From a virus: 55,901 nt of DNA. Within the stretch, counting starts at the first letter, position 1; each line of letters begins with the position of its first letter. The stretch is from the IMG/VR virus record IMGVR_UViG_3300045988_171564; one strand, 5' to 3'. Positions 28 to 47,192 of this stretch are shown here, piece after piece. Under the pieces are notes generated by a model. That model was not told where the DNA came from. It ran no database searches and was given only the letters and a program-made list of their open reading frames with translations. A program made the translations under genes and the position numbers.

Positions 28-2352
28 GCGGGCGACTGGTACGGCGCAGGCTCGATACTGGCCGATAAGGTCAACGAAATGATAGATCAGGTTGACTGGG
101 ACGGCTGGGGGCACAAGCTGGGCGCAGGCCTTGAGCACGGCATAGAGCTTGCGGATGGCTTTTTGGCCACGCTAAAGCTTGACAAGCTGGGGGCGGGGCT
201 GGCTACGTCGCTTAACGGCGTAATGGATGAGGTTGACTTTACCGCCGCCGGGCGCGTGTTCATGGCTAAGTGGAAGCTACTGTTCGATATGGCTTACGGC
301 TTTATCAATACGTTCGACTGGGCGCAATTCGGCGTGTCGGTGGGTAACTTCATTAACGGCTCGTTTGAGGGATTCAACATAGAGCGCGGCGCGTACTTAG
401 TGATAGGCGGTCTGAACGGGTTGTTTACATCGTTGATAAACGCCGCAAAGACTATCAAGTGGACGGAGATAGGGCAAAGCGTAGGCAAGGCCATTAACAA
501 CGCGCCGTGGCGCGACATGTTTGTGAACGCGGGAACAGCGCTTTCCGACGGGCTAAAGGGCATGTTTACGACGCTTATAAACGCCGTCCAGACAATAAAC
601 TGGAAAGAGCTGGGTACGTCGGCGGCAGACGGCATGAACGCCGTTGACTGGGTAGGCGTTGCCCAAAAGGCGGGTCAATTCGTCGGTGAAGGGCTAAAAA
701 GCCTTGCTAGCTTTGTAGGTAGCTTCATGAGCAATGCCGATTGGTTCAGGATAGGTGCAGGCATTGCCGCATTGCTTGAAGGCATCGACTGGCAAGGTCT
801 TTCTGACAACCTTTTGTCATGCGCTAAGGGATTAGCAAGCGGCTTAGTTAGCGCTATAAAGGGCTTTTTTCTTGAAGATTCCAACTTTAACGGTGTCCCG
901 GGATGGATGGAAGCAGCGGGGGCGATTGCCAATTTCCTGCTGCAACTGCTTGATGCTGGCGTAAAAGAGTTGGTTAAAATGCCGCTTAAGATCGGGTATG
1001 AGGTCGCCGACTGGATTGCAGAGGCGCTAAAGGACATGATCGACGCAGTATTCCCCGGAATGGGGCTGGGCGACCGGCTTTATAACGGCATAATGGAATC
1101 CGTGCGAATGTCTGACCCATACTATGTGGAAGAACTGGCACGCCAAATGGCTGAAGGTACTGGCGAAGGTGTAGAAAAGGGCATCGACATGGCCAGCAAT
1201 TCTGCTGACTTTGCAAGTGCCGCTCAGGACGCGGGCTATAAGATCGGTGAGAATCTGGGCAAAGGTGCAGGGCGTTTTACCAGCTATGCAACGTGGATAA
1301 ACCCCACCATAAAAAAGAGCATGGTATCCGTCGGCGAAAACGCCGTGGTGGGGTTCCAAAAGGGCATAGAGAACAAGGAAGACAGCTTAAAAAGCACCAT
1401 GTCCGACGCGGCGGGTGATGGGCTTCTGAACCACCTTAAAACCATATTGGGCATACACTCCCCGTCAACCGAAATGGAAAGCATCGGTGAAAACACGCTT
1501 CAAGGCCTTATAAACGGCCTTATCGCAAAGGAAGCGCTGCTGACCGTAACCACGGCGGCATGTACGCTCATTATGACTACGGCGTTTACGGTAGCATGGA
1601 CGGCTATCAAGCTGGGCACTACGCTGGCGTGGTCAACGTCGGCGGACGGCATCATAGGCCGCATGAACGCGGGCATATCGGCGGGCGATACGGCGCTTAA
1701 AAATGGCTCAACCCTATGGGTAAACACCGTCGGCGGCGCGTGGACGCAGATTAAAGACGCGATACCTGCGGGCTGGGCGCAGATAAGCGCGAGCATAAAG
1801 GCACAGTCTGAGCAGGCCGCAAACGGCATGAAAACTGCGTTTGAAAGCGCCAAAGGGTCGATACTGGCGGTATGGGACGGCATAAAGAGCGGCGTGCAGT
1901 CGGCGATAAGCGACATAATAAGCGCAGTTAACCGCATGTCATCGTCGGTGTCGTCGGCCATAAGCTCGATGAACAACTCCATTAACCGCTTTACAAACGG
2001 CGCGAACCAGAAGATCACGCAGACGCAGACCAAGATAAACGAAATCAAAGTGCCCAAATTCGCGAGCGGCGGTTATCCGAACACGGGCGAACTGTTCCTT
2101 GCGCGCGAGGCCGGCCCCGAATTGGTAGGCTCGATACGCGGCAGATCGGCGGTGGCCAACAACGACCAGATTGTCGAGGGCATACGCCAGGGCGTGTACG
2201 AGGCCGTATCGGCGGCGCAGAATGGCAATCAGGGCGGCACGATAGAAGTCAAGCTGTACATAGACGGCAGACAGGTAGCCGCATCGGTAGAAAAAGCACA
2301 GCGCGAACGCGGCGCGACGATATATCCGGGAGGTGTGCTGAGTGGCGCTTAA
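1..2352 (+). CDS. Tail tape measure protein, C-terminal part (continues from 54417..55901 across the circle junction)
   Basis: Frame 1 is open from nt 1 with no upstream stop. The combined ORF is about 1269 aa and lies directly after the G/GT chaperone pair. Sequence is repetitive and Ala/Gly-rich. Confidence 0.85.
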   Translation, partial: VDQIKNAIEAGDWYGAGSILADKVNEMIDQVDWDGWGHKLGAGLEHGIELADGFLATLKLDKLGAGLATSLNGVMDEVDFTAAGRVFMAKWKLLFDMAYGFINTFDWAQFGVSVGNFINGSFEGFNIERGAYLVIGGLNGLFTSLINAAKTIKWTEIGQSVGKAINNAPWRDMFVNAGTALSDGLKGMFTTLINAVQTINWKELGTSAADGMNAVDWVGVAQKAGQFVGEGLKSLASFVGSFMSNADWFRIGAGIAALLEGIDWQGLSDNLLSCAKGLASGLVSAIKGFFLEDSNFNGVPGWMEAAGAIANFLLQLLDAGVKELVKMPLKIGYEVADWIAEALKDMIDAVFPGMGLGDRLYNGIMESVRMSDPYYVEELARQMAEGTGEGVEKGIDMASNSADFASAAQDAGYKIGENLGKGAGRFTSYATWINPTIKKSMVSVGENAVVGFQKGIENKEDSLKSTMSDAAGDGLLNHLKTILGIHSPSTEMESIGENTLQGLINGLIAKEALLTVTTAACTLIMTTAFTVAWTAIKLGTTLAWSTSADGIIGRMNAGISAGDTALKNGSTLWVNTVGGAWTQIKDAIPAGWAQISASIKAQSEQAANGMKTAFESAKGSILAVWDGIKSGVQSAISDIISAVNRMSSSVSSAISSMNNSINRFTNGANQKITQTQTKINEIKVPKFASGGYPNTGELFLAREAGPELVGSIRGRSAVANNDQIVEGIRQGVYEAVSAAQNGNQGGTIEVKLYIDGRQVAASVEKAQRERGATIYPGGVLSGA

Positions 2353-2728
2353 AGCATTGGTAAGGGTAGGCAATGTTGACCTGCCCGAACCGTCCACCTA
2401 TTCGGGCAATACCGCGACGCTGGTTGATTCGGAGCGCAACCTTCAGGGCAAAGTCATAGGAAGCGTTGTGCGCGACGACGTGGCAAAGGTTGAATTGGGC
2501 TGGCGGTATCTGACCGCCGCCCAGTGGTCAATGGTAGGCAAGCTATTCAAAATAAGCGCGGGCGGGCAGTTTTATAACAACGTCACGTTCTTTGATCAGA
2601 CAGAAGGCGACTGGGTAACGCGCCTTATGTACGTAAGCGACCGCAACGCGGGAATGTGGCGGCGCGACCCCGAAACCGGTGACGTGATGGGCTGGACGGA
2701 CTGCAAGCTATCGCTAATCGAGGTGTAA
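2342..2728 (+). CDS. Small tail protein at the distal-tail (Dit) position, function unassigned
   Basis: GTG start follows GGGAGGTG and overlaps the TMP stop. 128 aa. Synteny only. Confidence 0.55.
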   Translation: MALKALVRVGNVDLPEPSTYSGNTATLVDSERNLQGKVIGSVVRDDVAKVELGWRYLTAAQWSMVGKLFKISAGGQFYNNVTFFDQTEGDWVTRLMYVSDRNAGMWRRDPETGDVMGWTDCKLSLIEV

Positions 2729-2732
2729 GGCC

Positions 2733-4529
2733 ATGTATGCAGTAAGTCAGGCATGGAAGGATATGCAGGCCTCACAACTGGTGGGCGAGGGCTTTGTCGA
2801 GGTATCGTTTGCGGTAGGCGACCCGGACGCGCAGAACGCGGCCACGGCTAGCGACAACGGCCATATGTACATAAGCGACATATCGGTTATTACCGACGAA
2901 AACCAAAGGCAGTTCACGCGGTACTGCACGCTGGAACAGGACTTATGGCAAGCAGACGGATCGCTGATACTTGCGCCAAACAGCGCGCCGGTAAGCGGAG
3001 CGGGGTTTGTGGGCAATGTGCTTTCGGGAGCGGACGGCAGCTTTGCCGTAAAACCGACGATAACGATAACGCTGGATCAGGTGTATAGCAAGCTCTTACC
3101 CGGCATATCGATAACGTGGAGCAAGACGTTTGACGAATGGGCAACCAGCTTTTCCGTCTCGGTAAACAAAAACGGCGCGACCGTATTTGCGTTTGCCAGA
3201 GGCAATAACACCGCGCCTTTAAGCGTGATTACCCACGACATACCGGAGTATGACCAAGTGGTAATCAAGATACACAAGTGGTCAAAACCCCTCCATTATG
3301 CGCGGGTTGAGAACATATTGCTGGGCATAAAGGCCACATACGACAAGGGGCAGCTAATGGCGTTCGAGCACGAGCGCAATTTCGACCCGATATGCGCGAG
3401 CGCGCCGGTTGCGTCCATCACATTTTCGCTGGACAACACGGGCGACGAATACGACCCCAACAACGATACTGGCATGAGCAAGTACCTTATGGAGCGTCAG
3501 CGCATACGGGCGAGGTACGGATTCAAATTGCCCAACGGCCAGACCGAATGGATTCCGGCAGGGCTATTCTATCTATCCGAATGGAACGCGCCCCAGAACG
3601 GCCTTACCGCCTCATTCAAGGCGCGCGACATCATGACGCTGATGCAGGGCACGTACTCAAAGGGCGTATACAGTCCGGGCGGCGTGACGCTAAAGGCATT
3701 GGCCGAAGCGGTATTGAATGACGCGAACCTGCCGCCCGGAACGTCAGGGGGCACGGTATGGCAGCTTGACGAGGCACTGAGCGGTATGACGACTACCGCG
3801 CCGCTCCCATTAAAGACGCACGCGGAATGCCTCCAATATATTGCACAGGCGGCGGGCATGGCCATGTGGCACGACAGAAGCGGCGTAATGCACATAGGCA
3901 CGCCGGGGACGGGCGTTGACACGAGCTATAAACTGAACGACTTCAACCTGTTTTCGCGGCCTGAAATCGAGCTGCAAACGCCGGTAAGCACGGTGAGAGT
4001 GCATGTGTACAACTACACCGTACAGGCAGATGATACGGAGCTGTACAAGGGCACCCTTACGATAAACGGCACTAAGGAAATAACCGTCAGCTATTCACAG
4101 ACGGCGGCGAGCGCCACGGCCACGGTAACGGGCGGTACGCTGGTGTCCGCACAGTACTTTGCATCGGCATGTACGCTAAAAATAACCGCGTCGGGCGACG
4201 TGAACATTGCCGTTACCGGCAAGCCGCTTGCATCGCAGACCGCGAACCACGACATATACCTTGCCGACGACGGCAGCGTGCAGGAAGTGGACAACCCACT
4301 TATAACCGACGACACGCGCGCGGAGGCGGTAGCACAATGGGCGGGCGCGTACCTAAAGGCGCGCAGGCAAATAAAAATCAGCTCGTGGCGCGCAGACCCG
4401 CGACTAGACGCGCTGGACATAGTGCCGGTGGCAAACAAGCACAGCGAGGAAAACGTGCGCATAAGCCGTGTGAAGTACTCGTTCAAGGGCGCGTTCCGTG
4501 GAGACGCGGACGGGCGCGTGACAACCTAA
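2733..4529 (+). CDS. Tail tip / baseplate hub-position minor structural protein
   Basis: 598-aa ORF after the Dit-position gene, matching TMP-Dit-Tal synteny of siphoviruses. No catalytic motif recognised by eye. Confidence 0.55.
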   Translation: MYAVSQAWKDMQASQLVGEGFVEVSFAVGDPDAQNAATASDNGHMYISDISVITDENQRQFTRYCTLEQDLWQADGSLILAPNSAPVSGAGFVGNVLSGADGSFAVKPTITITLDQVYSKLLPGISITWSKTFDEWATSFSVSVNKNGATVFAFARGNNTAPLSVITHDIPEYDQVVIKIHKWSKPLHYARVENILLGIKATYDKGQLMAFEHERNFDPICASAPVASITFSLDNTGDEYDPNNDTGMSKYLMERQRIRARYGFKLPNGQTEWIPAGLFYLSEWNAPQNGLTASFKARDIMTLMQGTYSKGVYSPGGVTLKALAEAVLNDANLPPGTSGGTVWQLDEALSGMTTTAPLPLKTHAECLQYIAQAAGMAMWHDRSGVMHIGTPGTGVDTSYKLNDFNLFSRPEIELQTPVSTVRVHVYNYTVQADDTELYKGTLTINGTKEITVSYSQTAASATATVTGGTLVSAQYFASACTLKITASGDVNIAVTGKPLASQTANHDIYLADDGSVQEVDNPLITDDTRAEAVAQWAGAYLKARRQIKISSWRADPRLDALDIVPVANKHSEENVRISRVKYSFKGAFRGDADGRVTT

Positions 4530-11268: not shown

Positions 11269-12057
11269 ATGGATATGACTAAGATTGCGGCGAGCAACTT
11301 TGTGAAATGGCTGCAAAAGCAGCACGACGACAAGTGCGGGTACATCATGGGCACGAGCGGGCAAGCGCCCAAAGACCTGGGCAAAAATAGCTGGTACTTT
11401 ACTCAGTACCACGACCGCGGAGAATATACCGCGGCGCAAGAGGCTAAGGCGCTGTACTGGTATAACAATGCGCCGCGCGTCTTTGACTGCGCGGGCATGG
11501 CGGAGGGCGCGGTGGTCGAGATGCTGGGTCTGCCGCTCAAGGACGTCAATACTAAGGCGCGCTATATATATAGCGACTGGTGCGCAGGCGCGAACAGTAC
11601 CGACATGAGCAGGCTCCCGCGCGAGCCGGGCGTGGCGGTATTTAAGACCCGCTCCAAGCCGGGCGCAATCCACCATATCGGCTACCTCGAGCGCCCGGTG
11701 GTGGAGGGCGACACGGCGGGCGACTGGTACGTGATCGAGGCCAAGGGCGTTATGTACGGCGTGGTACGCACCCGCCTCAACAATGACAAAAACTGGAATT
11801 GCTGGGGCTATATGAAAAAATACTTTGACTACAAAAGCGCGCCGCCCCAGCCCGCGCCGGTCAAACCCGGCCAGATACGCATAACCGGTGGCAGCGTCAA
11901 CCTGCGCACGGGGCCGGGCACGGAGTACGACGTGGGCACCGTGGCACACTACGGCGATACCTACGACCGCGCAAAGACGGACGGCTGGACGCCGGTCAAG
12001 GTGGGCGATGAGGTGCTGTGGGTAAGCGATAAGTATACGGAGGTGGTCAAGATATGA
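11269..12057 (+). CDS. Endolysin: NlpC/P60-like cysteine peptidase with a C-terminal SH3b-like domain
   Basis: Candidate catalytic Cys in FDCAGM and His in HHIGYL. C-term IRITGGSVNLRTGPGTEYDVGTV..DGWTPVKVGDEVLWV is SH3b-like. Lies upstream of the holin gene. Confidence 0.75.
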   Translation: MDMTKIAASNFVKWLQKQHDDKCGYIMGTSGQAPKDLGKNSWYFTQYHDRGEYTAAQEAKALYWYNNAPRVFDCAGMAEGAVVEMLGLPLKDVNTKARYIYSDWCAGANSTDMSRLPREPGVAVFKTRSKPGAIHHIGYLERPVVEGDTAGDWYVIEAKGVMYGVVRTRLNNDKNWNCWGYMKKYFDYKSAPPQPAPVKPGQIRITGGSVNLRTGPGTEYDVGTVAHYGDTYDRAKTDGWTPVKVGDEVLWVSDKYTEVVKI

Positions 12058-12314
12058 CCGATACTATCATCGTAGCGCTTATAACCGGCGGCATAAGCCT
12101 GCTGGGCGTGATAGTGAGCAACGTCGCTACTCACCGCAAAACCATGGCACTAATCGAATATAAACTGCAGGAATTGCGAGGCGACGTGACTACACTAAGC
12201 CGCCGCGTTGATGAGCACAATCATTTGGTAGAGCGCATGGCTGCGGTCGAATCCAGCACTAAATCCGCACACCACAGGCTCGATACCCTTGAGCAAAATA
12301 TAAGGCACGACTAA
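12054..12314 (+). CDS. Lysis-cassette membrane protein (N-terminal TM segment plus coiled coil)
   Basis: TM segment IIVALITGGISLLGVIVSNV is followed by a heptad-like region. Sits between endolysin and holin. Confidence 0.5.
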   Translation: MTDTIIVALITGGISLLGVIVSNVATHRKTMALIEYKLQELRGDVTTLSRRVDEHNHLVERMAAVESSTKSAHHRLDTLEQNIRHD

Positions 12315-12333
12315 CCAAAAGGAGGATTTTGTA

Positions 12334-12681
12334 ATGCAATTCGATTTTACGGCGATTTTTCAGGCGATTCTGGCGCTGCTGGGCGCGATTATCACGTACT
12401 GGCTGGTGCCTTACGTCAAGTCCAAGGCGACCGCGCAGCAGCAGGCCAATGTAGCGATACTTGTGCGCACGGCGGTACAGGCGGCGGAGCAGCTCTACGG
12501 CGCGGGCATGGGCAAGGCCAAGCTGGACTATGCGCAGGCGTGGCTGAACGAGCGCGGCGTAAAGTACAGCCGCGCGGAAATTGAAGCAGCGGTTAGAGAC
12601 CTGAGCAATGATATTATAAGCGTGCTGGGCGCGGGGGACGAGGCGAGTAAGAGCGGCGGCGATAAGTCGGGAGGCGATTAA
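12334..12681 (+). CDS. Holin (LL-H / superfamily-6-like)
   Basis: N-terminal TM FTAIFQAILALLGAIITYWLVPYV, then AILVRTAVQAAEQLYG..GKAKLDYA, typical of LL-H type holins. Confidence 0.65.
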   Translation: MQFDFTAIFQAILALLGAIITYWLVPYVKSKATAQQQANVAILVRTAVQAAEQLYGAGMGKAKLDYAQAWLNERGVKYSRAEIEAAVRDLSNDIISVLGAGDEASKSGGDKSGGD

Positions 12682-12683
12682 CC

Positions 12684-12896
12684 ATGCCCGACGACCCGTT
12701 CAGCGGCATCAGCACAGAAGAAATGTACGAACGCATAAACGCCGCGAGACTGGGGCGGGTGAATACCCAGATTGCAAAAATGCGGCTTATAGACCGCGAA
12801 AAGTACGCGGACATAGGCGCGGCAGTCGGGTATGACCGAACGACTGTTGCGCGGCGAATGAACGGAATCATAAGGCAGCTATCATCGGGCGGTTAA
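12684..12896 (+). CDS. Small sigma-70 region-4-like HTH protein
   Basis: REKYADIGAAVGYDRTTVARRMNGIIRQL HTH. Last gene before a strong terminator. Confidence 0.5.
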   Translation: MPDDPFSGISTEEMYERINAARLGRVNTQIAKMRLIDREKYADIGAAVGYDRTTVARRMNGIIRQLSSGG

Positions 12897-12913
12897 GCCG
12901 CCCATATTTTCAA

Positions 12914-12952
12914 GGCCAACTTGTAAGAAATCCTTACAGGCTGGCCTTTTTT
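12914..12952 (+). terminator. Rho-independent terminator ending the structural/lysis operon
   Basis: GGCCAACTTGTAAG..CTTACAGGCTGGCC stem followed by a T run. Confidence 0.75.
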
Positions 12953-13052
12953 AATGCGCAAATTTTGCCCGCGAATGCAGCATGAACGCCCGCAAACGCC
13001 CCCGCCAAAATGCCGAATAAGCGATAATTACAGCAAGGGAGGGGAAAACGAT

Positions 13053-13496
13053 ATGGCATACGGATACGCTTACGGCAACCAGACGGTCACGCCCAACAGC
13101 TACTTCAACGCGAACTACACGCCGCCGCCACTGCCTATGAGCACGGCACAGCAGCAGCAAATCCAACCTCAGACCAACGTCAACTGGATATACGTAAACG
13201 GCATACAGGGCGCGCGGGATCATATCGTTCAGCCCGGCCAGACCGCGTGGATGATGGACAATAACGACCCCGTGATCTACGTAAAAGCCGTTGACATGAT
13301 GGGTTCTACCACATTCAAGGCGATGCTGCTTACCGACTATAACATTTCAAATTCCTCGCAAAATGTACAGCAAAGCGCCGTGGACACAAGCCAATTTGTC
13401 AAAACCGATGATTTTGACAAGTTAAGCGTGCGGATGGGCGAGCTTGAAAACCGCCTGAGTACGCTTGTAAATGAGATTGGAGGGCTGAATACATGA
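13053..13496 (+). CDS. Hypothetical protein (Q/P/Y-rich N-terminus plus globular C-domain)
   Basis: ATG 13053 follows GGGAGGGG. MAYGYAYGNQ..QQQQIQPQ then WIYVNGIQGARDHIVQPGQTAWMMDNNDPVIYVK. Confidence 0.6.
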   Translation: MAYGYAYGNQTVTPNSYFNANYTPPPLPMSTAQQQQIQPQTNVNWIYVNGIQGARDHIVQPGQTAWMMDNNDPVIYVKAVDMMGSTTFKAMLLTDYNISNSSQNVQQSAVDTSQFVKTDDFDKLSVRMGELENRLSTLVNEIGGLNT

Positions 13497-13711
13497 ACCC
13501 GCTCATAAGTATGATGGCAAAGCAGGCCAATGGCAACATGCCGCAAGCTCAGATGATGCGCCAGTTTGCGGAGTTTAAGAAACAATGGACACCTGAAAAA
13601 GCTCAGGCAAAGATTAACGAGATGCTTGAAAGCGGGCAGATAAACGCCCAGCAGCTTGAACAGGCCAAGCAAATGGCCCAGCAAATGCAGGGTCTTTTGG
13701 GCGGCAAATAA
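13493..13711 (+). CDS. Hypothetical small Gln/Met-rich protein
   Basis: SD GGAGGG. ATGA overlap with the upstream gene. 72 aa. Confidence 0.55.
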   Translation: MNPLISMMAKQANGNMPQAQMMRQFAEFKKQWTPEKAQAKINEMLESGQINAQQLEQAKQMAQQMQGLLGGK

Positions 13712-13780
13712 CATATCGCTACAACCGCCGGGTGCGCAACGGTGATTGTAAAATAAGCCTAAAAAACAGGAGGAAAAAGC

Positions 13781-14239
13781 ATGGATAACATGACCCCCGC
13801 CGACGTAATGGCTATGACGCGAAACGACGGAAACGACAGTTTCTTCGGCGCGAACGGCTTCTTCGGCATAATCGTACTGTTCTTCATATTCGCCATGTTT
13901 GGTGGCGGCAGTATTGGCGGCTGGGGCGGGAACAACGCGGCTGCACAGGGCGCGCTTACCCGCGCGGAGCTGGCTGACGGCTTCAACACCGCCGAAATCC
14001 AGCGCAACCAGAGTGACATTATACGCGACCAGTTTGGCCTTCAGCAGGAAATCATGAACAACCGCTTTGCGCTGGCCGACACGGCGAACGGCACTCAGCG
14101 TGAGATCATGCAGAACCGTTTCGAGAACCAGCAGATAGGCTGTAACACGCAGAAGGAAATCATGCAGAACCGCTACGATAACGCGCTGGCGATGCAGAAC
14201 CTTCAGGCGCAGATGGCCCAGTGCTTGAGAAGAATCGTT
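13781..14239 (+). CDS. Exon 1 of an intron-split membrane protein gene (3' boundary is a model)
   Basis: SD AGGAGG. TM FFGIIVLFFIFAMFGG, then repeated (Q/R)EIMQNR(F/Y) units. The ORF reads on into intron sequence and stops at 14296. Confidence 0.6.
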
Positions 14240-15534
14240 AATGCCATTCGACGGTTCTTTGCACACAAAGATGCAGTAGGCACTTGTGCGGCGTAAGTCG
14301 CACTGGCAACCGGGTGAATTGCTGGAAAGCTAAGTTCGCAGTTGACATTTTCTCACATTCGGCGTATATTACAGATTGCATTTCACGTCGAAGGAGAAAA
14401 GGTGATGTTTTACGTATATGAATGGTACGTCGTCAAAACCAATGAAGTGATATATGTTGGCAAAGGATGTGGCAACCGATATAAGGTGCGTAAGCATAAC
14501 ACCAAATTTGACGCTTTTATAAGCGCGGTTGAATGCAACAGTCGAATCGTAAAAACGTTCGACAATGAAGCAGATGTTTTTGAGTATGAAAAACTACGTA
14601 TAGAAGAGTTACATTCCTTAGGCCAATGTATATGCAACATTTTAGATGGTGGCTTTGGCGGTAGCATTAGCTGGTGGACGGATGAAATGAGAGAACGTTA
14701 TTCGGCTCATAACGTCATGAAAACGTCAATTCAGCGTAATCGCATGAAGACTAATAACCCAATGAGCAATGCGAGCGTTTCCGCAAAGGTTGGCGCTACA
14801 AAGCGAAAACCCTTGATGGTTGACACCGAACAATTTGATTGCCTTTCCGATGCGATCAAAGTTTACGGCAGCAAGGTTGGTTACTGGGTAAAAGTCGGAC
14901 ATACAGCCGATTTCAAGCCATGCTACTATCTGGCCAATGGCAAAAAGCATATTGCTGCAAAACATAGGAATTTAGGCGGCGCAAAGCGTGTCGTTTATAA
15001 CGGCAAAGTCTATGAATGTCAAAGGGATATTTGCCGTAAGTTTGGGTTCTCAGCTTCAACACTCAGCAAATATATCCATCGCGGCTATACTGACGATGGC
15101 ATTGAGTGCAGATTTGAATCCGCTCAACCTGTGCTGCAATACATGCCATATACCGGGGCACGCCCTGTCTTAATAGACGACATACTCTACCCAAGCATAA
15201 AGAATGCGTCCGAGCAGACGAATCTTTATGCGCAAGGAATCCAATACGCGTTGAAACATAGCGGCTTATATAAAGGCCACAAATGCGAATATGCCAATCA
15301 GCAGCCAAGCCTTGTGAAGTCTGATAAAAGTAGCAAGTAAGGTTCAACGACTAACGAGTGAGGACAGACACCAATAATCTCGACACGAGTTCCCGGCTCC
15401 CGTCAAGGGATGAAGATATAGTCTGAACTGTTGAGAAATTAACAGAAGCACAGGATAAAGAGCCTGCGCGATAACACAATGGCTGCGAAACTAAGACGGC
15501 CATACATGCCGAAGGCGAGGCCACGCGCTCGCTG
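14240..15534 (+). mobile_element. Group I intron with an internal GIY-YIG homing endonuclease ORF (boundaries approximate)
   Basis: Core elements: P-like AATTGCTGGAAAGC (14317-14330), Q-like AATCAGCAGCC (15296-15306), R-like GTTCAACGACTA (15342-15353), S-like AAGATATAGTC (15413-15423). Candidate P1 pairs exon AATCGTT (14233-14239) with GACGGTT (14250-14256). G at 15534 is the candidate omega-G. Confidence 0.8.
14405..15340 (+). CDS. GIY-YIG homing endonuclease (intron-encoded)
   Basis: ATG 14405 follows AAGGAGAAAAGG. N-term FYVYEWY..VIYVGKGCGNRYKVRKH..YEKLRIEEL fits the GIY-YIG motifs. C-terminal NUMOD/IENR-like repeats (VVYNGKVYECQRDICRKFGFSASTLSKYI; VLIDDILYPSIKNASEQT). Confidence 0.8.
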   Translation: MFYVYEWYVVKTNEVIYVGKGCGNRYKVRKHNTKFDAFISAVECNSRIVKTFDNEADVFEYEKLRIEELHSLGQCICNILDGGFGGSISWWTDEMRERYSAHNVMKTSIQRNRMKTNNPMSNASVSAKVGATKRKPLMVDTEQFDCLSDAIKVYGSKVGYWVKVGHTADFKPCYYLANGKKHIAAKHRNLGGAKRVVYNGKVYECQRDICRKFGFSASTLSKYIHRGYTDDGIECRFESAQPVLQYMPYTGARPVLIDDILYPSIKNASEQTNLYAQGIQYALKHSGLYKGHKCEYANQQPSLVKSDKSSK

Positions 15535-15726
15535 ATGCAGTCCAACACCATACAGGAACTGCGAGATCAGCTTCAGGCGGCACAGCTCCAGCTAGGCACT
15601 CTGTCTCAGACCAACACCATAATTGGCACGCTGCGCCCCACGCCCATACCGGCTTACATAACGTGTTCGCCCTATCAGAGCGAGCAGTATAACTGCGGCG
15701 CGTATGGCGGCTGCTGCGGCCGATAA
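15535..15726 (+). CDS. Exon 2 of the intron-split gene (5' boundary is a model; alternatives begin at 15532 or 15515)
   Basis: Open frame after stop 15502-15504. QSNTIQELRDQLQAAQLQLG continues the Gln-rich character of exon 1. Ends in LRPTPIPAYITCSPY..CGAYGGCCGR. Confidence 0.55.
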   Translation: MQSNTIQELRDQLQAAQLQLGTLSQTNTIIGTLRPTPIPAYITCSPYQSEQYNCGAYGGCCGR

Positions 15727-15764
15727 GCTCCCAAACACAATTGACATTCGCTATTAACAGCGCG

Positions 15765-15806
15765 ACGCCCGGCAGACATCAAGCGCTGTCGGGCGCTATC
15801 TTTTTT
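15765..15806 (+). terminator. Rho-independent terminator
   Basis: CGCCCGGCAG..CTGTCGGGCG stem followed by CTATCTTTTTT. Confidence 0.65.
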
Positions 15807-15826
15807 CAGAGAAAGGATTTTGCAGC

Positions 15827-16264
15827 ATGAGTAATAATAATTGCCGAAACAGGTATTATAAGTCGGCGCAGACCGCCTATAACAACACCGCCCAGGCTTA
15901 TGCGGCGGCGGCCACTCAGATCAATATCGAGGGCAATCTGGCAACCAACACGGGCTGCTCGATAGACACCCAGACCGGCGGCTTTAACATCAACGATACC
16001 GGCCTTTATCGGATAAGCTATGACGTAACGCATACGCCCAGCGCGGCGGGCGTGGCCATTGTGCAGCTATATGACGGCGCGGGCGCGCTTCCCTGCGCCA
16101 TATCGCAGGAAACCGTGGCGGCAGACAGCGTATATACCACGCATGTTGAAACCGTTTTGTACCTTGCGGCGTGCTGCGCGATGCGGCCTTCCATAAGCGC
16201 GCAGATAAGCGGCGTAGCGGGCACGATTAACCATGTGTGCGCAAGCGCGGTGAGGCTGGCATGA
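15827..16264 (+). CDS. Hypothetical protein, possibly a C1q/TNF-like (BclA C-terminal-like) jelly-roll
   Basis: 145 aa. GGFNINDTGLYRISYDVTHTPSAAGVAIVQLYDG pattern resembles C1q/BclA-CTD beta strands. The fold assignment is only an impression. Confidence 0.45.
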   Translation: MSNNNCRNRYYKSAQTAYNNTAQAYAAAATQINIEGNLATNTGCSIDTQTGGFNINDTGLYRISYDVTHTPSAAGVAIVQLYDGAGALPCAISQETVAADSVYTTHVETVLYLAACCAMRPSISAQISGVAGTINHVCASAVRLA

Positions 16265-16563
16265 ATACGCTAAAATGGCTGTCCGAAAGGCTGATGGGCA
16301 ACATAAGCGAGGCCAAAGAGTACATCGACAAGGCCTACATGTGCAAGGAATCCGATAAGCCCGTTGCCGATTGGTGCATGGCTATGGCCAACGGACATTT
16401 ACAGTTCAACGTGGCCGGACTGGCGCTGATGGACAAGGCGCTCAACGAATTTTCGGACGAATTGCTTGCACCGGGAGTTAAGGCGGTATACGCGCTTCAG
16501 CGCGCGGAGATCGTCAAGCAGACCTCACATGCGAGGGCGCTTATCGACATGTACGGGAAGTAA
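16261..16563 (+). CDS. Hypothetical helical protein
   Basis: ATGA overlap with the upstream stop suggests translational coupling. 100 aa. Confidence 0.5.
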   Translation: MNTLKWLSERLMGNISEAKEYIDKAYMCKESDKPVADWCMAMANGHLQFNVAGLALMDKALNEFSDELLAPGVKAVYALQRAEIVKQTSHARALIDMYGK

Positions 16564-16574
16564 AAATAAGGCAG

Positions 16575-16606
16575 GAGCGGACGCGACATGCGCCCGCTTT
16601 TTTTAT
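16575..16606 (+). terminator. Rho-independent terminator
   Basis: GAGCGGACGCG..GCGCCCGCT stem followed by TTTTTTT. Confidence 0.6.
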
Positions 16607-16745
16607 TATGCCTGTTATGCTTATTATGTCGATTAAATAACAGACATAGCGTATTGACATTATACCCATTATCGGTGTATCATAATGAGCATAAATTATG
16701 CCCATTATATATATGGCATAACAGACATAACGCACATAATCGGAG
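16606..16745. repeat. CATAAC-type 9-bp repeat arrays flanking the parA promoter (candidate centromere/operator)
   Basis: Left arm is inverted: ttatgcctgttatgc / ttattatgtcg / ataacagacata. Right arm is CATAACAGA-CATAACGCA-CATAATCGG plus cataatgagcataa. Confidence 0.65.
16654..16683 (+). promoter_or_regulatory. Candidate parA promoter
   Basis: TTGACA (16654-16659), 18-nt spacer, TATCAT (16678-16683), embedded in the repeat arrays. Confidence 0.5.
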
Positions 16746-16755
16746 CGTGAGAGAC

Positions 16756-17514
16756 ATGAGAACCATCGTAATAGCAAATCAGAAGGGCGGCGTGGGCAAA
16801 ACCACGACCGCACACGCGATGATCGCAGGGCTTGCCAAGCGCGGCTTCAGCGTGCTGGGCATTGACCTTGACCCACAAGGCAATTTATCGTCCGCGTGCG
16901 GCGCGGATCAGTACGACGGGCCCACGACGTATGAAGTGTTGACCGGCAAGGCAAGTGTATCCAGCGCGATTCAAGAATTGGGCAAACCGCGCTATAAGCT
17001 CTTAGCGGCCAATATAATGCTTGCAAGTGCCGAACAGGAACTAACACAGGTGGGCAAGGAATATCGCCTTAGAGAGGCGCTGACGGGCTTACAGGGCATT
17101 GATTACGTGATAGTTGATACGCCGCCGTCGCTGGGCATACTGACCGTCAACGCCTTTACCGCCGCGAACTGCGTAATCATACCCACTACGGCGGGCGTGT
17201 TCGCCGCAACCGGCATAGACCAGCTCAACATTACCATTGGCAACGTGCGCAAGTATTGCAACCCCGGACTGTATATCGCGGGCATACTGTTTACCCGATA
17301 CAACGCGCGCACGAACGTTGGTCGTCAGATAAGGACGCTGACAGAGCAGCTAGGCGAGCGCATATCCGCGCCGACTTACCACACCTGCATCCGTTCGGCG
17401 GTAGCGGTGGAAGAAGCGCAAATCAGCCGGGAGGATATATTTACCTATGCGGCAAGTTCGACCGTCGCCGCCGACTATAACGACTTTCTGAAGGAGTTCT
17501 TGGAAAATGGCTAA
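16756..17514 (+). CDS. parA: ParA/Soj-family partition ATPase
   Basis: Deviant Walker A in IANQKGGVGKTTTAHA, and DYVIVDTPPSLG. The upstream part of the 16588 ORF is repeat DNA, so ATG 16756 is taken as the start. Confidence 0.85.
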   Translation: MRTIVIANQKGGVGKTTTAHAMIAGLAKRGFSVLGIDLDPQGNLSSACGADQYDGPTTYEVLTGKASVSSAIQELGKPRYKLLAANIMLASAEQELTQVGKEYRLREALTGLQGIDYVIVDTPPSLGILTVNAFTAANCVIIPTTAGVFAATGIDQLNITIGNVRKYCNPGLYIAGILFTRYNARTNVGRQIRTLTEQLGERISAPTYHTCIRSAVAVEEAQISREDIFTYAASSTVAADYNDFLKEFLENG

Positions 17515-17788
17515 AAAGGCATTTGATACGGACAGGCTGTATGGCAATTTTATGAGCGTCAAGGAACGGGATGAGCAGGAAGAGCCCGCACGCAAGAGCA
17601 GTGCAAAAAGGCGCGTATGCTTTGCCGTGCCCGCCGACGTGTACGCCGACGCGCAGAAGATAGCGCAGGTAAGGCTCACCAGTGTAAGTGAGATCGTGTC
17701 GAGACTGCTGACCGAATACGTTGCCCGGAATCGGGAAGCGCTTGCAGAGTACGACACCTTAAAGGCCAAAAGTCAAGAAAAGAGCTAA
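17507..17788 (+). CDS. ParG-like ribbon-helix-helix partition/centromere-binding protein
   Basis: Overlaps the parA stop. RRVCFAVPADVYADAQKIAQVRLTSVSEIVSRLL fits an RHH (beta-alpha-alpha) pattern, preceded by a basic flexible N-terminus. Confidence 0.6.
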   Translation: MAKKAFDTDRLYGNFMSVKERDEQEEPARKSSAKRRVCFAVPADVYADAQKIAQVRLTSVSEIVSRLLTEYVARNREALAEYDTLKAKSQEKS

Positions 17789-38398: not shown

Positions 38399-39238
38399 TT
38401 ATCTCTTGGCCAACATTCTTTTCAGCACTCTCAACCATTGCGGCTTATCCAAGTCGCGTAAATCCTCGCCGCGCCGGAGCGTGCCGCCAACGCGCACATA
38501 TTCGCGTTCCGGTCGGGAACGGCTTGACCTGCCCGCAATCAGCCATTCGACCGCCGCTTGAATTTCTTCCGGCGGTATGCGCGGAACCGTATACCGCGTG
38601 ATGCCGTCCGGATTACGATAGATGCAGCTACCGTAACGCGGCAGGTTTTCCGCGCCCGCAACGCCGATTATGTTGCGGCTGTCCTGCGCGGTCGGGCACC
38701 TGAGCGCAACGCGCGCGTCAATGTTGACAGCGATTTGCCCGTTGATTAAATCGCGCGTCGGGCGCTGGGTTGCGGCGATTACGTGTACGTTCGCCGCGCG
38801 CCCAAGCTGGGTAAGCCGCGCAAGCAGCGGTGTTACCTCCTTTTTGCTGGTAGTCATGAGGTCGGCCAGCTCATCGATAATGACGTATACAGCCGGTTCC
38901 CCGTAAAACTTACGTTCAGCGGGGTTCGAGCGCTCCATCATTATCCTGTAGCGATTATCCATCAGCCTGACCACGCTTTCCAACGTGCGGATAATGTCGT
39001 CCGGCTCCGTTGCGTGCATTGCCGTCTGAGGCAAGCACGCATAGTCAATCAACTCGACCCGCTTGGGGTCGATGAGGTATAGGTTGGGCGCCTTGTGCTC
39101 ATGAAGCGCGCCGAGCAGGTGGTAAATCAGGTTATGCAGCAACACCGATTTGCCCGAGCCGGTTGCGCCTGCTATAAGAAGATGAGGTTGATTAACCATG
39201 TCCATGAAAGGCTTATACCTTGTAAATGACCGCTCCAT
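38399..39238 (-). CDS. FtsK/SpoIIIE-family ATPase (motor domain only, no TM segment)
   Basis: Walker A LLIAGATGSGKSVLL. Walker B VYVIIDELADLM. VHVIAATQRP and ARVALRC motifs. Confidence 0.8.
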   Translation of the reverse strand: MERSFTRYKPFMDMVNQPHLLIAGATGSGKSVLLHNLIYHLLGALHEHKAPNLYLIDPKRVELIDYACLPQTAMHATEPDDIIRTLESVVRLMDNRYRIMMERSNPAERKFYGEPAVYVIIDELADLMTTSKKEVTPLLARLTQLGRAANVHVIAATQRPTRDLINGQIAVNIDARVALRCPTAQDSRNIIGVAGAENLPRYGSCIYRNPDGITRYTVPRIPPEEIQAAVEWLIAGRSSRSRPEREYVRVGGTLRRGEDLRDLDKPQWLRVLKRMLAKR

Positions 39239-39286: not shown

Positions 39287-39976
39287 TTATTCGTAAATTT
39301 CGTCAAAATCGCAAACTTCGTCATCGCCGCCGACGTCGGCATTGCCATAGACTTTAGCACCATTGTAGACCTCGGCGCAACCGTTCACCTCGGCACTGCC
39401 GTAAACTTCGGCACAACCATGTATCGAGGCATTATCATAAATCTCCGCGTCATCGTAAATCTCAGCATCGTCGGAGACTTCTGCTTCTCCGTGCACTTGA
39501 GCGTTGCCATAAACATTGGCGCCGCCGTAGACCTCGGCACTGTCGTACACGCGGGCGTTGTCGTATACCTTAGGCCAATCATATATTCTGGCGTGGCCGT
39601 AAACTTTCGCGGCGCCGTATACATCACCGCCGTGTACATTGGCATCGCCGTATACCTCGGCATTGCCGTAAACGTGGGTGGTTTCGACGTAGGCATTGCC
39701 GTACACGCGGGCATTGTCATAAATGTGGCCGTCCATAATGCAAGCGTTTCCGCCGACTTTGGCATCGTCACATACTATGGTGCCGCCGTAAATTTTAGCA
39801 TCATCGTATACCCAAGCGCTGCCGTCGTCGCTTATATCACCGTCGTACTCGACCCAGCCGCCCACGTCGCCCGCGTGAACGTCACCGAAATCGCGCAGCG
39901 CCTTAACGCGGTATACCGTATATATCTCGTCTACTATCATGGACTCTTCTTTGACCAGCTCATACTTCTTTCCCAT
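39287..39976 (-). CDS. Beta-helix-type hexad-repeat protein, paralog A
   Basis: N-term YELV..YRVKALRDFGDVHAGDVGGWVE, then about 25 six-residue units (xVYGxA: AEVYGD ANVHGG...). The start is set at MGKKYELV by analogy with paralog B. Confidence 0.7.
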   Translation of the reverse strand: MGKKYELVKEESMIVDEIYTVYRVKALRDFGDVHAGDVGGWVEYDGDISDDGSAWVYDDAKIYGGTIVCDDAKVGGNACIMDGHIYDNARVYGNAYVETTHVYGNAEVYGDANVHGGDVYGAAKVYGHARIYDWPKVYDNARVYDSAEVYGGANVYGNAQVHGEAEVSDDAEIYDDAEIYDNASIHGCAEVYGSAEVNGCAEVYNGAKVYGNADVGGDDEVCDFDEIYE

Positions 39977-40046
39977 TTTGTCCTCCATGCGTATATATTA
40001 GCCGGGCTTGTGACCGGCTCGCCGCATTATCGGCCCGTTTGGGCCG

Positions 40047-41015
40047 TCACTCTGCGTAAAGCCTATCCAGCTTTTCACAAAGCGCCTCATGCTGCTGCCA
40101 AGTAATCTTACCGGCCAGCAGCGCGTTACCGATTTTGCCGCCCATATAGCGGCGCTTACGCTCGCTGACGCTGTACCCGCTCCAGCGCGCGGCCCACTTG
40201 ACAGCCGCGCGGCTGCCATCTACCACGTCCCAAAGATTGAGACGCGTTGCGGCCGTGAAAGCGCGTGCGACGGCCATATTGCAGCGCCACATCTCTGCGG
40301 TGTCGCCGTCGCCGTCAACCTCGTCTAAGGCGACGTCGAACGTGCGGCCAGTCGCCGCGATTGTAACCGTGACGCTCCAGCGCGCGCCAAAGTCGCCGCA
40401 GTTCATGTCATCACAGCCGACAATCAAATCGCCGACTGTGGACGTCGCCCACACTGCGCCGCCTGCGGGATTAAAGTACCCGCCGCCGTTATGCGCGTAA
40501 TCAGGGTTAGCAAAATCATTAGTCTCTTCGCCCCAGCAGTTTATTAGCAGGGGCTTCAGTCCGTGCTTTACAGGCTTGTTGATGCTCTTAATTTTCATGT
40601 TATTCTCCTCCACTTTTCTGTTCATTTCGCCGCTTGCTGTTATGCGACGACGGCGCCCCGTCGCACGCGCAAAAAACGTGCGGGTCTCCAAATCGCAAAT
40701 CACATTTTCAGCGTCGTTCAAAAACGTGATGTGCGGGTATATTACGCGGCGGTATCCCATCGCCACAATCAGACCGCGCGGGCCTAACCACTGTACGTCA
40801 TCGTACAGTTTGGTTTGCACGGCCTCTTCACGCTCCATAACGTCGCGAGCCTTGCGGCATTCTGCCGCGCACGCAAACGCATACTTGCGCTTGCGTGTGC
40901 GCTGATACATGTTGTAATACGCCTGCGCGGTTACTACCGCGCGGCGGATTACGAGTACGTCGCGTTCGTACATGGCGCGTACTTCCTGAGCAACCTTTTT
41001 AATGTTCTTATCCAT
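40047..41015 (-). CDS. Hypothetical protein (322 aa; an internal SD plus ATG at 40597 could give a shorter product)
   Basis: ATG 41015 follows GGAGGG. GGAGGAG precedes the internal MKIKSINK. No motif recognised. Confidence 0.5.
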   Translation of the reverse strand: MDKNIKKVAQEVRAMYERDVLVIRRAVVTAQAYYNMYQRTRKRKYAFACAAECRKARDVMEREEAVQTKLYDDVQWLGPRGLIVAMGYRRVIYPHITFLNDAENVICDLETRTFFARATGRRRRITASGEMNRKVEENNMKIKSINKPVKHGLKPLLINCWGEETNDFANPDYAHNGGGYFNPAGGAVWATSTVGDLIVGCDDMNCGDFGARWSVTVTIAATGRTFDVALDEVDGDGDTAEMWRCNMAVARAFTAATRLNLWDVVDGSRAAVKWAARWSGYSVSERKRRYMGGKIGNALLAGKITWQQHEALCEKLDRLYAE

Positions 41016-41049
41016 TTTTCCCTCCAATTACTCCAATGTTCGGCATTTA

Positions 41050-45419: not shown

Positions 45420-45455
45420 ACTGAATAGTTAACGTCTGCATAAACGGGTGCAGAT

Positions 45456-45511
45456 AAGAGCCGATTGGGGCTTTGCTTTTATAAGCATTGCTTTGATCGG
45501 CTCTTTTTTTG
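45456..45511 (+). terminator. Rho-independent terminator
   Basis: AAGAGCCGAT...ATCGGCTCTT followed by TTTTTT. A second hairpin TCTGCA..TGCAGA lies just upstream. Confidence 0.65.
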
Positions 45512-45533: not shown

Positions 45534-47192
45534 ATGGACTATGAGCGACTTGTGAGCCGCATATTTGACGTAATCCAGGAAAAGCCGCTGGATGCGGGCG
45601 CATATGAGGACGTGCTGAATGTCTGCAAGGATATGAAAAAAAACGGCCTTTTAGGAAGGGCGCACGAGATTAATACCCAGATGCGCAATATCATTGTGCG
45701 CAACACAATCGGCGCAAAAAATGAGCTGTTTAAGCCGTATAAATCGAGCCTGCTGTTTGATGCTGACGTATCGCTGGACGCATACATGCTGTACCTTGAG
45801 ATAGAGCGCCCGCCTGCCGAAAGGTTTTATCAGCCGCGCCGCCGCGTACTGCTGGACGCGGTGCAGATGATGCAGGATTTGGCCGACGGCAAGTTGAACG
45901 AGGCGTTTATAAGCTGTCCGCCGCGAGTTGGCAAGACTACGCTGCTTATGTTCTTGACCACATGGTTGTTGGGGCGCAACAGTGAACAGGCTAATTTGTA
46001 TTCGGCCTACTCGGACGTTATCACGAATGCGTTTTATCAAGGCGTGCTGGAGATAATCACTGACCCGCATACATACCTTTGGAGCGACGTATTCCCGAAC
46101 AGTAAGATTGTGCAGACCAACGCCTCAAGCGAGACGATAAACCTTGACCGTAAAAAGCGTTACCCGTCGCTGACCTGCCGGTCACTGTACGGCACGCTGA
46201 ACGGCGCGTGCGATTGCAGCGGCTTTCTGATTTCGGACGACCTTATAGGCGGCATCGAGGAGGCCTTGAGCCACGACCGCATGATGAGTGCGTGGCTCAA
46301 GGTGGACAATAACCTGATAACCCGCGCAAAGAGCGATGCGCGCATACTCTGGTGCGGTACAAGATGGTCGATGATTGACCCAGCAGGGCTAAGGATGGAG
46401 CTGCTGACCAACGATAAGCGTTTCAAAAAGCGCAAGTACAAAATAATCAACATGCCCGCGCTTGATGACAAGGGCAACAGCAACTTCAATTACGACTACA
46501 ACGTCGGGTTCAGCACGGAGTACTACATGCAAAGGCGCGCGTCGTTCGAGCGAAACGGCGATATAGCGTCGTGGAACGCCCAGTACATGGGACAGCCGGT
46601 AGAACGCGACGGCACGCTGTTCGAGCCTGAAAACATGCGCTTTTTCAACGGCTCTTTGCCTGGCGGCGACCCTGACCGCGCATTTATGGCCGTTGACCCG
46701 GCATACGGCGGTTCCGACTTTGTAGCAAGCCCGGTATGCTACCAGTACGGCGAAGACGTATACGTTGTTGACGTGGTTTATAGTTCCAGCGATAAGCGGA
46801 CTACACAGCCACTGCTTGCAGCCGTAGCCCAGAAATACGGCATACAGCGAATGCAAATCGAAGCCAATAAGACCACGGAGGCGTTCAAGGACGGCGTTGA
46901 GGAAGAACTCAAAAAGCGCGGCTATCACGTTACGCTGACCACCAAACCCGCGCCGCCCATCACATCGAAGGAAAACCGCATACGAGATCGCGCGCCGGAT
47001 ATACGCATTCACTTTCTGTTTCTGGAAGATGGACAGCGTTCAAAGGCATATAGTTTGTTTATGCAAAACGTGTATTCGTTTAAGCTTATAGGCAAGAACA
47101 AACACGACGACGCGCCCGATTCGCTGGCAATGGCCGCAGACATGGCGTTTGGCATACAGCGGCGCGTCGCAATATTCCGGCGCATGTTCTGA
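45534..47192 (+). CDS. terL: Terminase large subunit
   Basis: Walker A-like ISCPPRVGKTTLLMF. ATPase plus nuclease-sized 552-aa ORF directly upstream of the portal gene. Confidence 0.8.
   Translation: MDYERLVSRIFDVIQEKPLDAGAYEDVLNVCKDMKKNGLLGRAHEINTQMRNIIVRNTIGAKNELFKPYKSSLLFDADVSLDAYMLYLEIERPPAERFYQPRRRVLLDAVQMMQDLADGKLNEAFISCPPRVGKTTLLMFLTTWLLGRNSEQANLYSAYSDVITNAFYQGVLEIITDPHTYLWSDVFPNSKIVQTNASSETINLDRKKRYPSLTCRSLYGTLNGACDCSGFLISDDLIGGIEEALSHDRMMSAWLKVDNNLITRAKSDARILWCGTRWSMIDPAGLRMELLTNDKRFKKRKYKIINMPALDDKGNSNFNYDYNVGFSTEYYMQRRASFERNGDIASWNAQYMGQPVERDGTLFEPENMRFFNGSLPGGDPDRAFMAVDPAYGGSDFVASPVCYQYGEDVYVVDVVYSSSDKRTTQPLLAAVAQKYGIQRMQIEANKTTEAFKDGVEEELKKRGYHVTLTTKPAPPITSKENRIRDRAPDIRIHFLFLEDGQRSKAYSLFMQNVYSFKLIGKNKHDDAPDSLAMAADMAFGIQRRVAIFRRMF

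Follow-up and report, generated by a model that had tools for sequence, protein, structure and literature searches.

A predicted mobile class IA group I intron with a GIY-YIG endonuclease in a membrane-protein gene of a phage-plasmid

The IMG/VR virus record IMGVR_UViG_3300045988_171564, analyzed here over its whole length of 55,901 nucleotides (nt; hereafter, the window), is, judging from its gene content, a near-complete phage-plasmid of ~56 kb. Downstream of the lysis genes, a gene for a small membrane protein is very probably interrupted by a mobile group I intron of class IA that carries a gene for a GIY-YIG homing endonuclease. The intron occupies positions 14226..15481 on the plus strand (1256 nt), as delimited by an intron-less allele; a match to the Rfam model RF00028, covariation among relatives and G+C content also mark it as an intron. 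Such an intron had been proposed in the original prediction, made from the window sequence, and is supported by the RF00028 match, the covariation and the intron-less allele; both splice sites, however, lie elsewhere than had been proposed. Conceptually, the arrangement is an ordinary, textbook one, but the intron family is new, widespread and well supported.

The boundaries follow from comparison with the intron-less allele P0001, a protein of 229 amino acids (aa) whose gene lies on contigs of 52-54 kb that share the gene order of the window (P0001 and P0121 are proteins from a large protein database; L-numbers denote genomic loci of relatives, that is, virome contigs and phage records). The sequence of P0001 corresponds exactly to a fusion of exon 1 (13781..14225) and exon 2 (15482..15726, including the stop codon at 15724-15726), both on the plus strand, and reads ...QAQMAQC-C-CETKTAIHAEGEATRSL... 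across the junction (more fully, ...LQAQMAQCCCETKTAIHAEGEATRSLMQSNTIQELRDQL...). At the DNA level, the intron-less locus L004 is colinear in blastn with positions 12040-14227 and 15482-17742 of the window, and the colinearity on the side of exon 1 ends at 14225-14227. Only the junction CAG TGC T|GC TGC GAA, where exon 1 ends with the first T of the second Cys codon, matches the intron-less allele in both sequence and length. Because the P0001/L004 allele fits only the junction 14225|15482, the intron was assigned to 14226..15481, with U14225 as the last base of exon 1 before the 5' splice site and G15481, in the context ...AACACAAUG|GCUGCG, as the terminal omega-G. Excision at these positions restores an unbroken host frame of 229 aa with 97% identity to P0001 over its full length (100% coverage). 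Furthermore, the sequence AAUG|G(C/U)UG at the 3' splice site is conserved among relatives, and more distant intron-less homologs detected in phage records by tblastn run uninterrupted through the insertion site. The base composition changes as well, from ~57% G+C in the flanks to ~44% in the intron, with 40-46% between positions 14250 and 15450.

Within these boundaries, the four classical elements of a group I core are present in the right order and at the positions originally recognized, namely, P AATTGCTGGAAAGC at 14317, Q AATCAGCAGCC at 15296, R GTTCAACGACTA at 15342 and S AAGATATAGTC at 15413. As had been predicted, P and Q pair as P4 (14320-14325 with 15298-15303), and GACTA and TAGTC form P7 (15349-15353 with 15419-15423). 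The Rfam covariance search that had been suggested as a check matched RF00028 (Intron_gpI) to positions 15161..15445 when filters were relaxed, with 49.7 bits, just under the gathering score of 50 (E 3e-11 in a local scan and 1e-9 for the whole window). The posterior probability of this alignment is high for Q, P6, R, S and P9; the 5' half is misplaced because ~950 nt of open reading frame (ORF) separate P4 from its 3' partner, P4'. Three relatives, L074, L060 and L069, exceed the gathering score, with 60-61 bits (61.1, 61.1 and 60.2).

We drew a helix model comprising P1, P10, P2-P5, P5a, P6, P6a, P7, P7.1, P8, P9 and P9.1 from the window sequence and tested it on a MAFFT alignment of 23 distinct relatives from gut viromes, in which the ORF was cut out and the two halves were joined by an artificial GAAA. 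The controls were alignments in which the 3' partners were slid by 1-3 columns and 500 shuffles. Standard pairing was found in 95.1% of the 1613 cells (71 pairs, 23 sequences) versus 32-42% in the slid controls, and two-sided (compensatory) changes occurred in 48 of the 71 pairs, including the exon bases of P1 and P10. The covariation score was 0.445 versus at most 0.108 in the slid controls, and none of the 500 shuffles reached the observed values. Helices P3 (14310-14314 with 15392-15396), P4, P6 (15305-06 with 15341-42), P6a (15310-14 with 15334-38), P7 and P8 (15398-401 with 15407-10) are 98-100% paired and show compensatory changes, with 100% pairing in both P3 and P4. Moreover, covariation is present in every helix of the 3' half of the core (15284..15469), which the Rfam alignment also supports and which additionally contains P9 (15428-34 with 15439-45), capped by a GAAA loop, and P9.1 (15448-54 with 15463-69). 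The intron was placed in class IA because a helix P7.1 (CGAG/CUCG, 15355-58 with 15379-82; 100% paired, 4 of 4 pairs covarying) sits between P7 and P3'. Helices P5 (14329-14330 with 15293-15294) and P5a (14335-14340 with 15284-15289) score just 62-72% because MAFFT shifts them 1 nt out of register in about half of the sequences; on inspection, they pair and covary (UUCGCA/UGCGAA, UUUGCA/UGCAAA, GUGCGCA/UGCGCAU).

The helices that involve the exons are of particular importance for the placement of the splice sites. P1 (14220..14284) is formed by the exon sequence AGUGCU (14220-14225) and the internal guide GGCACU (14279-14284), with the U14225.G14279 wobble at the 5' splice site. It is 100% paired across the 23 sequences and changes on both sides, including the exon, as in L051 (ACUGCU/GGCAGU) and L040 (AGUGUU/AGACACU). 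The adjacent guide strand GCAGU (14273..14277) forms P10 with GCUGC (15482-15486), the five bases with which exon 2 begins; this helix is 99% paired, with double changes in 2 of the 5 pairs (GC to AU in 9 sequences) and a compensated version, GUUGU/ACAAU, in L040. In P2 (GUGCGG/UCGCAC, 14286..14303), all six pairs covary, and the loop contains the TAA at 14294-14296 that closes the frame of exon 1. The P1 loop spans 53 nt and includes an inner hairpin (GAAUCG, 14232-14237, with CGGUUC, 14252-14257); this insert is wholly missing in four relatives, L016, L040, L042 and L076, which read CAGUGCU|UAAAAACAGUAGGCACUU and in whose P1 the MAFFT alignment places gaps. The joining segment J2/3 (14304..14309) contains an invariant UGGC to which a conserved AAAGCCA-like motif (UGCCA in the window) in the loop of the inner hairpin (14238..14251) is complementary, both sides being too conserved for a covariation test; a tertiary contact between this loop and J2/3 is possible.

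The ORF predicted to encode the endonuclease (14405..15340, plus strand, 311 aa, with NUMOD/I-TevI-like DNA-binding repeats) lies, as originally described, between P and Q, with its 3' end overlapping Q and P6. In terms of the folded RNA, it is looped out between P4 and P4', in the loop of P5a. Its start was set at the ATG at 14405 because the first Met is invariant in homologs. The protein matches phrog_314, annotated as 'homing endonuclease' (E 1e-11), and the Pfam family PF20987 (E 1e-4). Among 32 homologs, PF01541 (GIY-YIG) is matched by 12 (best E 1.6e-5), NUMOD1 by 25 and I-TevI_DNA-bd by 22, with I-HmuI_NUMOD-like also within the range of 18-25 of 32. Residues Y3-V4-Y5, Y17-x-G19 (Y17-V18-G19 in the window), R25, E62 and N78 are invariant across the 32 homologs. 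An AlphaFold 2 (AF2) model with a predicted local distance difference test (pLDDT) score of 76.7 shows a beta-beta-alpha-beta-alpha fold for residues 1-71, followed by three repeated beta-beta-alpha-alpha DNA-binding units. The best structural matches of this model found by Foldseek were PD-T4-3, the catalytic domain of I-TevI (1ln0; TM-score 0.61-0.63, root-mean-square deviation 3.2 A, probability 0.99) and the GIY-YIG domain of UvrC; the DNA-binding domains of I-HmuI and I-TevI were matched as well. Searches of the PDB sequences with phmmer and with profiles returned nothing useful for either the endonuclease or the host protein.

The coding sequence of the endonuclease and the ribozyme are interlaced. 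The last ~57 nt of the ORF double as P5a', P5', P4', P6 and P6a, and the residues NQQPS in the C-terminus of the protein are encoded by AAU CAG CAG CCA AGC. In relatives, the ORF continues through EGSTTN (GAA GGU UCA ACG ACU AAC), which coincides with J6/7 and P7. The P5a loop further contains a predicted sigma-70-like promoter on the plus strand (TTGACA-17 nt-TATATT, 14342..14370; 11 of 12 consensus matches), followed by the ribosome-binding site AAGGAG (14391-14396) upstream of the ATG. L009, L014, L016 and L017 have a corresponding -35/-10 pair in this position, which often includes an extended TG. From these signals, we infer that the endonuclease can be made from its own short transcript, which would lack the 5' half of the ribozyme.

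Several observations weigh against the assignment as a functional class IA intron with a GIY-YIG enzyme. The default Rfam scan of the window at gathering thresholds gave no intron match, with 49.7 bits falling short of the 50 needed, and no second helix inside P7.1 (P7.2) could be defined, so that the assignment is at the level of class IA rather than of a subgroup (IA1, IA2 or IA3). The endonuclease of the window has no match to the Pfam GIY-YIG family (PF01541) at E<=1, and the Foldseek E-values are weak for the whole multidomain model (0.03-0.4). In addition, two pairs are weaker in the window copy than in its relatives. A TAA ends the endonuclease seven codons early (311 aa versus 318 aa in P0121 and L008) and replaces a C-G pair of P6a by C.U, and in P9.1 there is an A.C mismatch where L008 has A-U.

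These two mismatches, the premature stop codon and the marginal Rfam score would suit a decaying, splicing-defective relic, in which case the host gene would be effectively a pseudogene or yield only the 171-aa product of the exon-1 ORF. We consider such decay improbable. The catalytic-core helices P3, P4, P6, P7 and P8, the U.G pair at the 5' splice site, the omega-G and P10 are all intact, both exons have open frames with 97% identity to the intron-less allele, and the endonuclease retains all of its invariant residues. Lone mismatches in peripheral helices are, moreover, frequent among active group I introns. Judging from this anatomy, the segment 14226..15481 is in all likelihood a splicing-competent class IA group I intron.

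Far less probable still is that the same intron is spliced at other sites, as had been originally drawn, with U14239 as the last base before the 5' splice site, P1 formed by AAUCGUU and GACGGUU, and G15534 as the omega-G. The two heptamers do pair and the resulting exons join in frame, but the pairing corresponds to the hairpin inside the P1 loop, which is absent in the four relatives that retain splice sites of the 14225/15482 type, and P1 and P10 covary at 14225/15482 instead. A junction 14239|15535 would read ...CLRRIVMQSNT..., a sequence found in no homolog, and the product ...MAQCLRRIVMQSNT... would be devoid of CCETKTAIHAEGEATRSL, a stretch shared by P0001 and all intron-less homologs. 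The alignment with intron-less homologs that had been suggested for fixing the junction thus bore out the fusion of the two exons (P0001, 97% identity), but not the junction that had been proposed, and identified G15481 as the true omega-G. The notion that there is no intron at all, but a free-standing homing endonuclease gene between two small genes (13781..14296 and 15535..15726), agrees with the lists of gene callers and GenBank annotators, where the pieces appear as separate hypothetical proteins, but can be dismissed with near certainty, given that intron-less alleles join both halves seamlessly and that ~340 nt of non-ORF sequence fold as a covarying group I core matching RF00028.

The intron at 14226..15481 belongs to a widespread family. 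Homologs of the endonuclease number in the hundreds, and all genomic contexts retrieved contain an exon-1 ORF of 120-170 aa, the endonuclease, a short exon-2 ORF and a gene for a BclA_C/C1q-like protein. The same arrangement is found in phages of quite different backbones, down to ~35-40% identity between the endonucleases. Of ~60 independent virome contigs, nearly all have the intron and endonuclease inserted in one codon run of this gene family, as does phage CPQ4. This insertion site, a TGC-TGC-TGC run of Cys codons, is the most conserved DNA of the host gene, which fits the usual target choice of homing endonucleases, enzymes that generally target conserved coding sequence (PMC3984707). 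The endonuclease presumably cuts intron-less alleles near the conserved sequence coding for Q-C-C-C-(D/E).

In one subfamily of introns and endonucleases (L060, L065, L067, L068, L069, L071, L074 and L081), exon 2 begins with GUGAAAC.... The 5' side of L074, read by eye, shows an exon 1 ending in ...UGCUGCU and a guide that differs accordingly, with no match to CAGUAGGCAC. The insertion point in this subfamily appears to lie one Cys codon further along the TGC repeat (UGCUGCU|GUGAA). Second matches resembling the internal guide sequence downstream in L033, L036, L043, L049 and L074 were rejected as chance matches within coding sequence, rather than second introns.

Among cultured phages, the intron is present, but unannotated, in Clostridium perfringens phage CPQ4 (MZ401006, locus 840..2590, L084), which shares 75% identity with the window over the 3' core and encodes a homologous endonuclease of 243 aa; the intron sits at the same S-C-C-C-E site of a homologous gene. 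The junction in CPQ4 is AGCUGUU|GUUGCGAA, with a predicted spliced reading of ...LSSCCCETNRNID...; the GenBank record lists three 'hypothetical proteins' and leaves exon 2 uncalled. In PMQ04, a relative of CPQ4, the same host gene is intact and intron-less. Clostridium phages phiCP13O (NC_019506, locus 254..3420, L085) and phiCP34O carry a 70%-similar 3' core between two coding sequences for a 'tape measure protein' that flank a 267-aa ORF; both the host gene and the ORF differ from those in the window, and this element probably represents a related intron that occupies another gene. An Rfam scan of the CPQ4 and phiCP13O loci gave no match at E<=1e-3, although CPQ4 clearly carries the intron, and a megablast search of the window region against phage genomes yielded no match. 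The introns of Streptococcus thermophilus phages are 80-82% identical to the window intron over P7'-P9-P9.1 (query positions 120-192; 63 records), but this match is confined to one short conserved segment.

The boundaries, the covarying RNA structure, the endonuclease family and the distribution over target sites, all shown by the analysis, suggest how splicing, cleavage near the insertion site and use of the internal promoter would proceed. The transcribed intron would fold into P1-P10, and exogenous guanosine would attack after U14225, held in place by the U.G wobble with the guide GGCACU. P10 would then position exon 2, allowing the freed 3'-OH of exon 1 to attack after omega-G15481. The ligated messenger RNA, CAG UGC U|GC UGC GAA (CAGUGCU|GCUGCGAA), would encode a 229-aa protein of the intron-less design. 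The GIY-YIG/NUMOD endonuclease, which could be produced independently from its own sigma-70-like promoter and ribosome-binding site, would presumably cleave intron-less alleles during co-infection or in lysogens, and repair would copy the intron into them (homing).

It is textbook knowledge that phage genes can contain group I introns that carry GIY-YIG enzymes (PMC3984707, PMC3073962, PMC2248736), and recent surveys continue to find more in structural and other genes (PMC11878797). Our literature searches recovered no description of this intron or of its host gene family. The closest parallel in organization is the td intron of phage T4 with I-TevI (class IA2), which likewise has a class IA core with an extra pairing between P7 and P3', a GIY-YIG catalytic domain combined with I-TevI-type or NUMOD DNA-binding modules, and endonuclease expression from signals within the intron, a property we infer for the window. 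In both introns, the 3' end of the ORF also overlaps core helices, a phenomenon referred to as 'core creep' (PMC3073962, PMC3984707). Unlike in td, where the ORF occupies P6a, the ORF in the window is located in the P5a loop; the overlap with the core is ~57 nt (~80 nt in relatives, reaching P7) rather than 20 nt, and the host gene encodes an uncharacterized membrane protein rather than thymidylate synthase. In addition, ribosomes translating exon 1 would reach an in-frame stop only in the P2 loop, 23 codons beyond the splice site, and not directly after it. No sequence similarity between I-TevI and the window endonuclease was detectable by phmmer. The group IA introns in nrdE, nrdF and prophages of the Bacillus cereus group (PMC2248736, PMC2504315), likened here by description only, share the Firmicute/phage setting, the class and the intron-encoded GIY-YIG enzyme, but interrupt ribonucleotide reductase genes.

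With the intron family described here, gut Firmicute phages and phage-plasmids gain a large, previously unannotated set of mobile group I introns, and an intron barely detected by the Rfam model now has a covarying RNA alignment. Recognition of the intron also corrects how a conserved family of phage genes, thousands of members strong, is annotated; gene callers and GenBank records, including that of CPQ4, split the host gene into two 'hypothetical proteins' and an unnamed ORF. It further marks the Cys-Cys-Cys motif as the most conserved DNA target in the gene for that protein.

The position of the stop codon in P2 is associated with a further property of these introns. Beyond the 5' splice site, the exon-1 frame continues without a stop across the P1 loop, the internal guide and the 5' strand of P2; it is closed by a conserved stop codon, often a double one, in the P2 loop. 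This is the case in 26 of 26 distinct intron copies (14226..14296 in the window; L008-L076), over 9-33 codons, whereas the other two frames stop earlier in 26 and 21 of the 26 copies, respectively. Measured from the splice-site codon, the end of P2 lies at one of eight distances between 37 and 112 nt, all equal modulo 3. Each of 15 representative inserts is open; the shuffle probabilities of 0.08-0.42 for the individual inserts multiply to ~3e-11, a value that overstates the significance because the sequences are related. The encoded tails are basic and amphipathic (e.g., LRRIVNAIRRFFAHKDAVGTCAA), yet weakly constrained, with 4 non-synonymous versus 1 synonymous change between the window and L008. 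By comparison, an in-frame stop codon directly follows the 5' splice site in most group I introns of bacteria (PMC3073962). A tentative and rather unlikely interpretation is that unspliced RNA would yield a truncated isoform consisting of the transmembrane helix, half of the long helix and an intron-encoded basic amphipathic tail of 9-33 aa, so that a gene adjoining the lysis cassette would have two alternative products, with the intron as the switch between them. A weaker alternative is that the ribosome may have to halt exactly in the P2 loop for the RNA to fold correctly. This in-frame read-through is the sole feature of the intron that might alter current concepts.

The host gene was originally viewed as an oddity of an accessory cluster; in fact, it belongs to a large conserved family, with 2544 database matches at E<=1e-5. 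The ORF called at this locus (13781..14296, plus strand) is located 3' of the lysis genes and encodes, as originally described, a single transmembrane segment followed by (Q/R)EIMQNR repeats, specifically QQEIMNNRF, QREIMQNRF and QKEIMQNRY. Exon 1 covers the N-terminal transmembrane helix and the beginning of a long helix, in which the (Q/R)EIMQNR(F/Y) repeats lie, whereas exon 2 encodes CETKTAIHAEGEATRSLMQSNTIQELRDQL..., a PAYITCSPY motif and a Cys/Gly-rich tail. The predicted spliced product of 229 aa would start with a short N-terminus and one transmembrane helix, followed by a conserved QGALTRxExADGFNT motif. Next would come 22-residue repeats bearing QQCCCxTQKEI(L/M)xNRY, then CCC(D/E)xKTAIHAEGEATRAL and a long helix, and finally PxPAYxTCSPY and the Cys/Gly-rich tail. 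The host protein has no relative in Pfam, NCBIfam or PDB and matches solely PHROGs of unknown function; an NCBIfam scan of all local proteins likewise gave no match. The AF2 model, of low confidence (pLDDT 61.6), contains only the transmembrane helix and one 128-residue helix. From this anatomy alone, we suspect that the protein forms a membrane-anchored, disulfide-linked coiled-coil oligomer. A scan of genome contigs with P0001 gave one distant match, in a metagenome-assembled genome labelled Bacteroidales, which is uninformative with respect to the host.

The genes of the window include those for a terminase, an SPP1-type portal, tail proteins, XkdX, an SH3 endolysin, a holin, ParA, a Rep3 initiator and DnaB. 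The interrupted gene is part of a conserved cassette (12684..16563) between the lysis genes and the lysogeny/plasmid genes, which is also present in L004, L009, L014, L016 and L017. The cassette encodes, in this order, a small sigma-70-region-4-like protein, a protein of ~147-180 aa (phrog_21718), a 72-aa protein (phrog_22984), the Cys-rich membrane protein and a C1q/BclA_C-like protein, the gene for which always follows that of the membrane protein. In other phages, the cassette additionally includes a DUF7841 protein after the C1q/BclA_C-like protein.

Two further RNA elements were observed elsewhere in the window. A Type-P5 twister ribozyme (RF02684), the only RNA reported by the default Rfam scan, is located on the minus strand at 40002..40056 (60.4 bits versus a gathering score of 37.6; E 4e-10), in the gap between the minus-strand ORFs 40047..41027, which has no Pfam match, and 39287..39988, which encodes a YdcK-like beta-solenoid protein; the gene for an FtsK/SpoIIIE-like ATPase (38399..39238) comes next. 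A near-threshold match to 'gut-2 RNA' (RF02990) was found on the plus strand at 45431..45478 (36.1 bits versus a gathering score of 39.8; E 5e-4), just upstream of the gene for the terminase large subunit (45534..47192).

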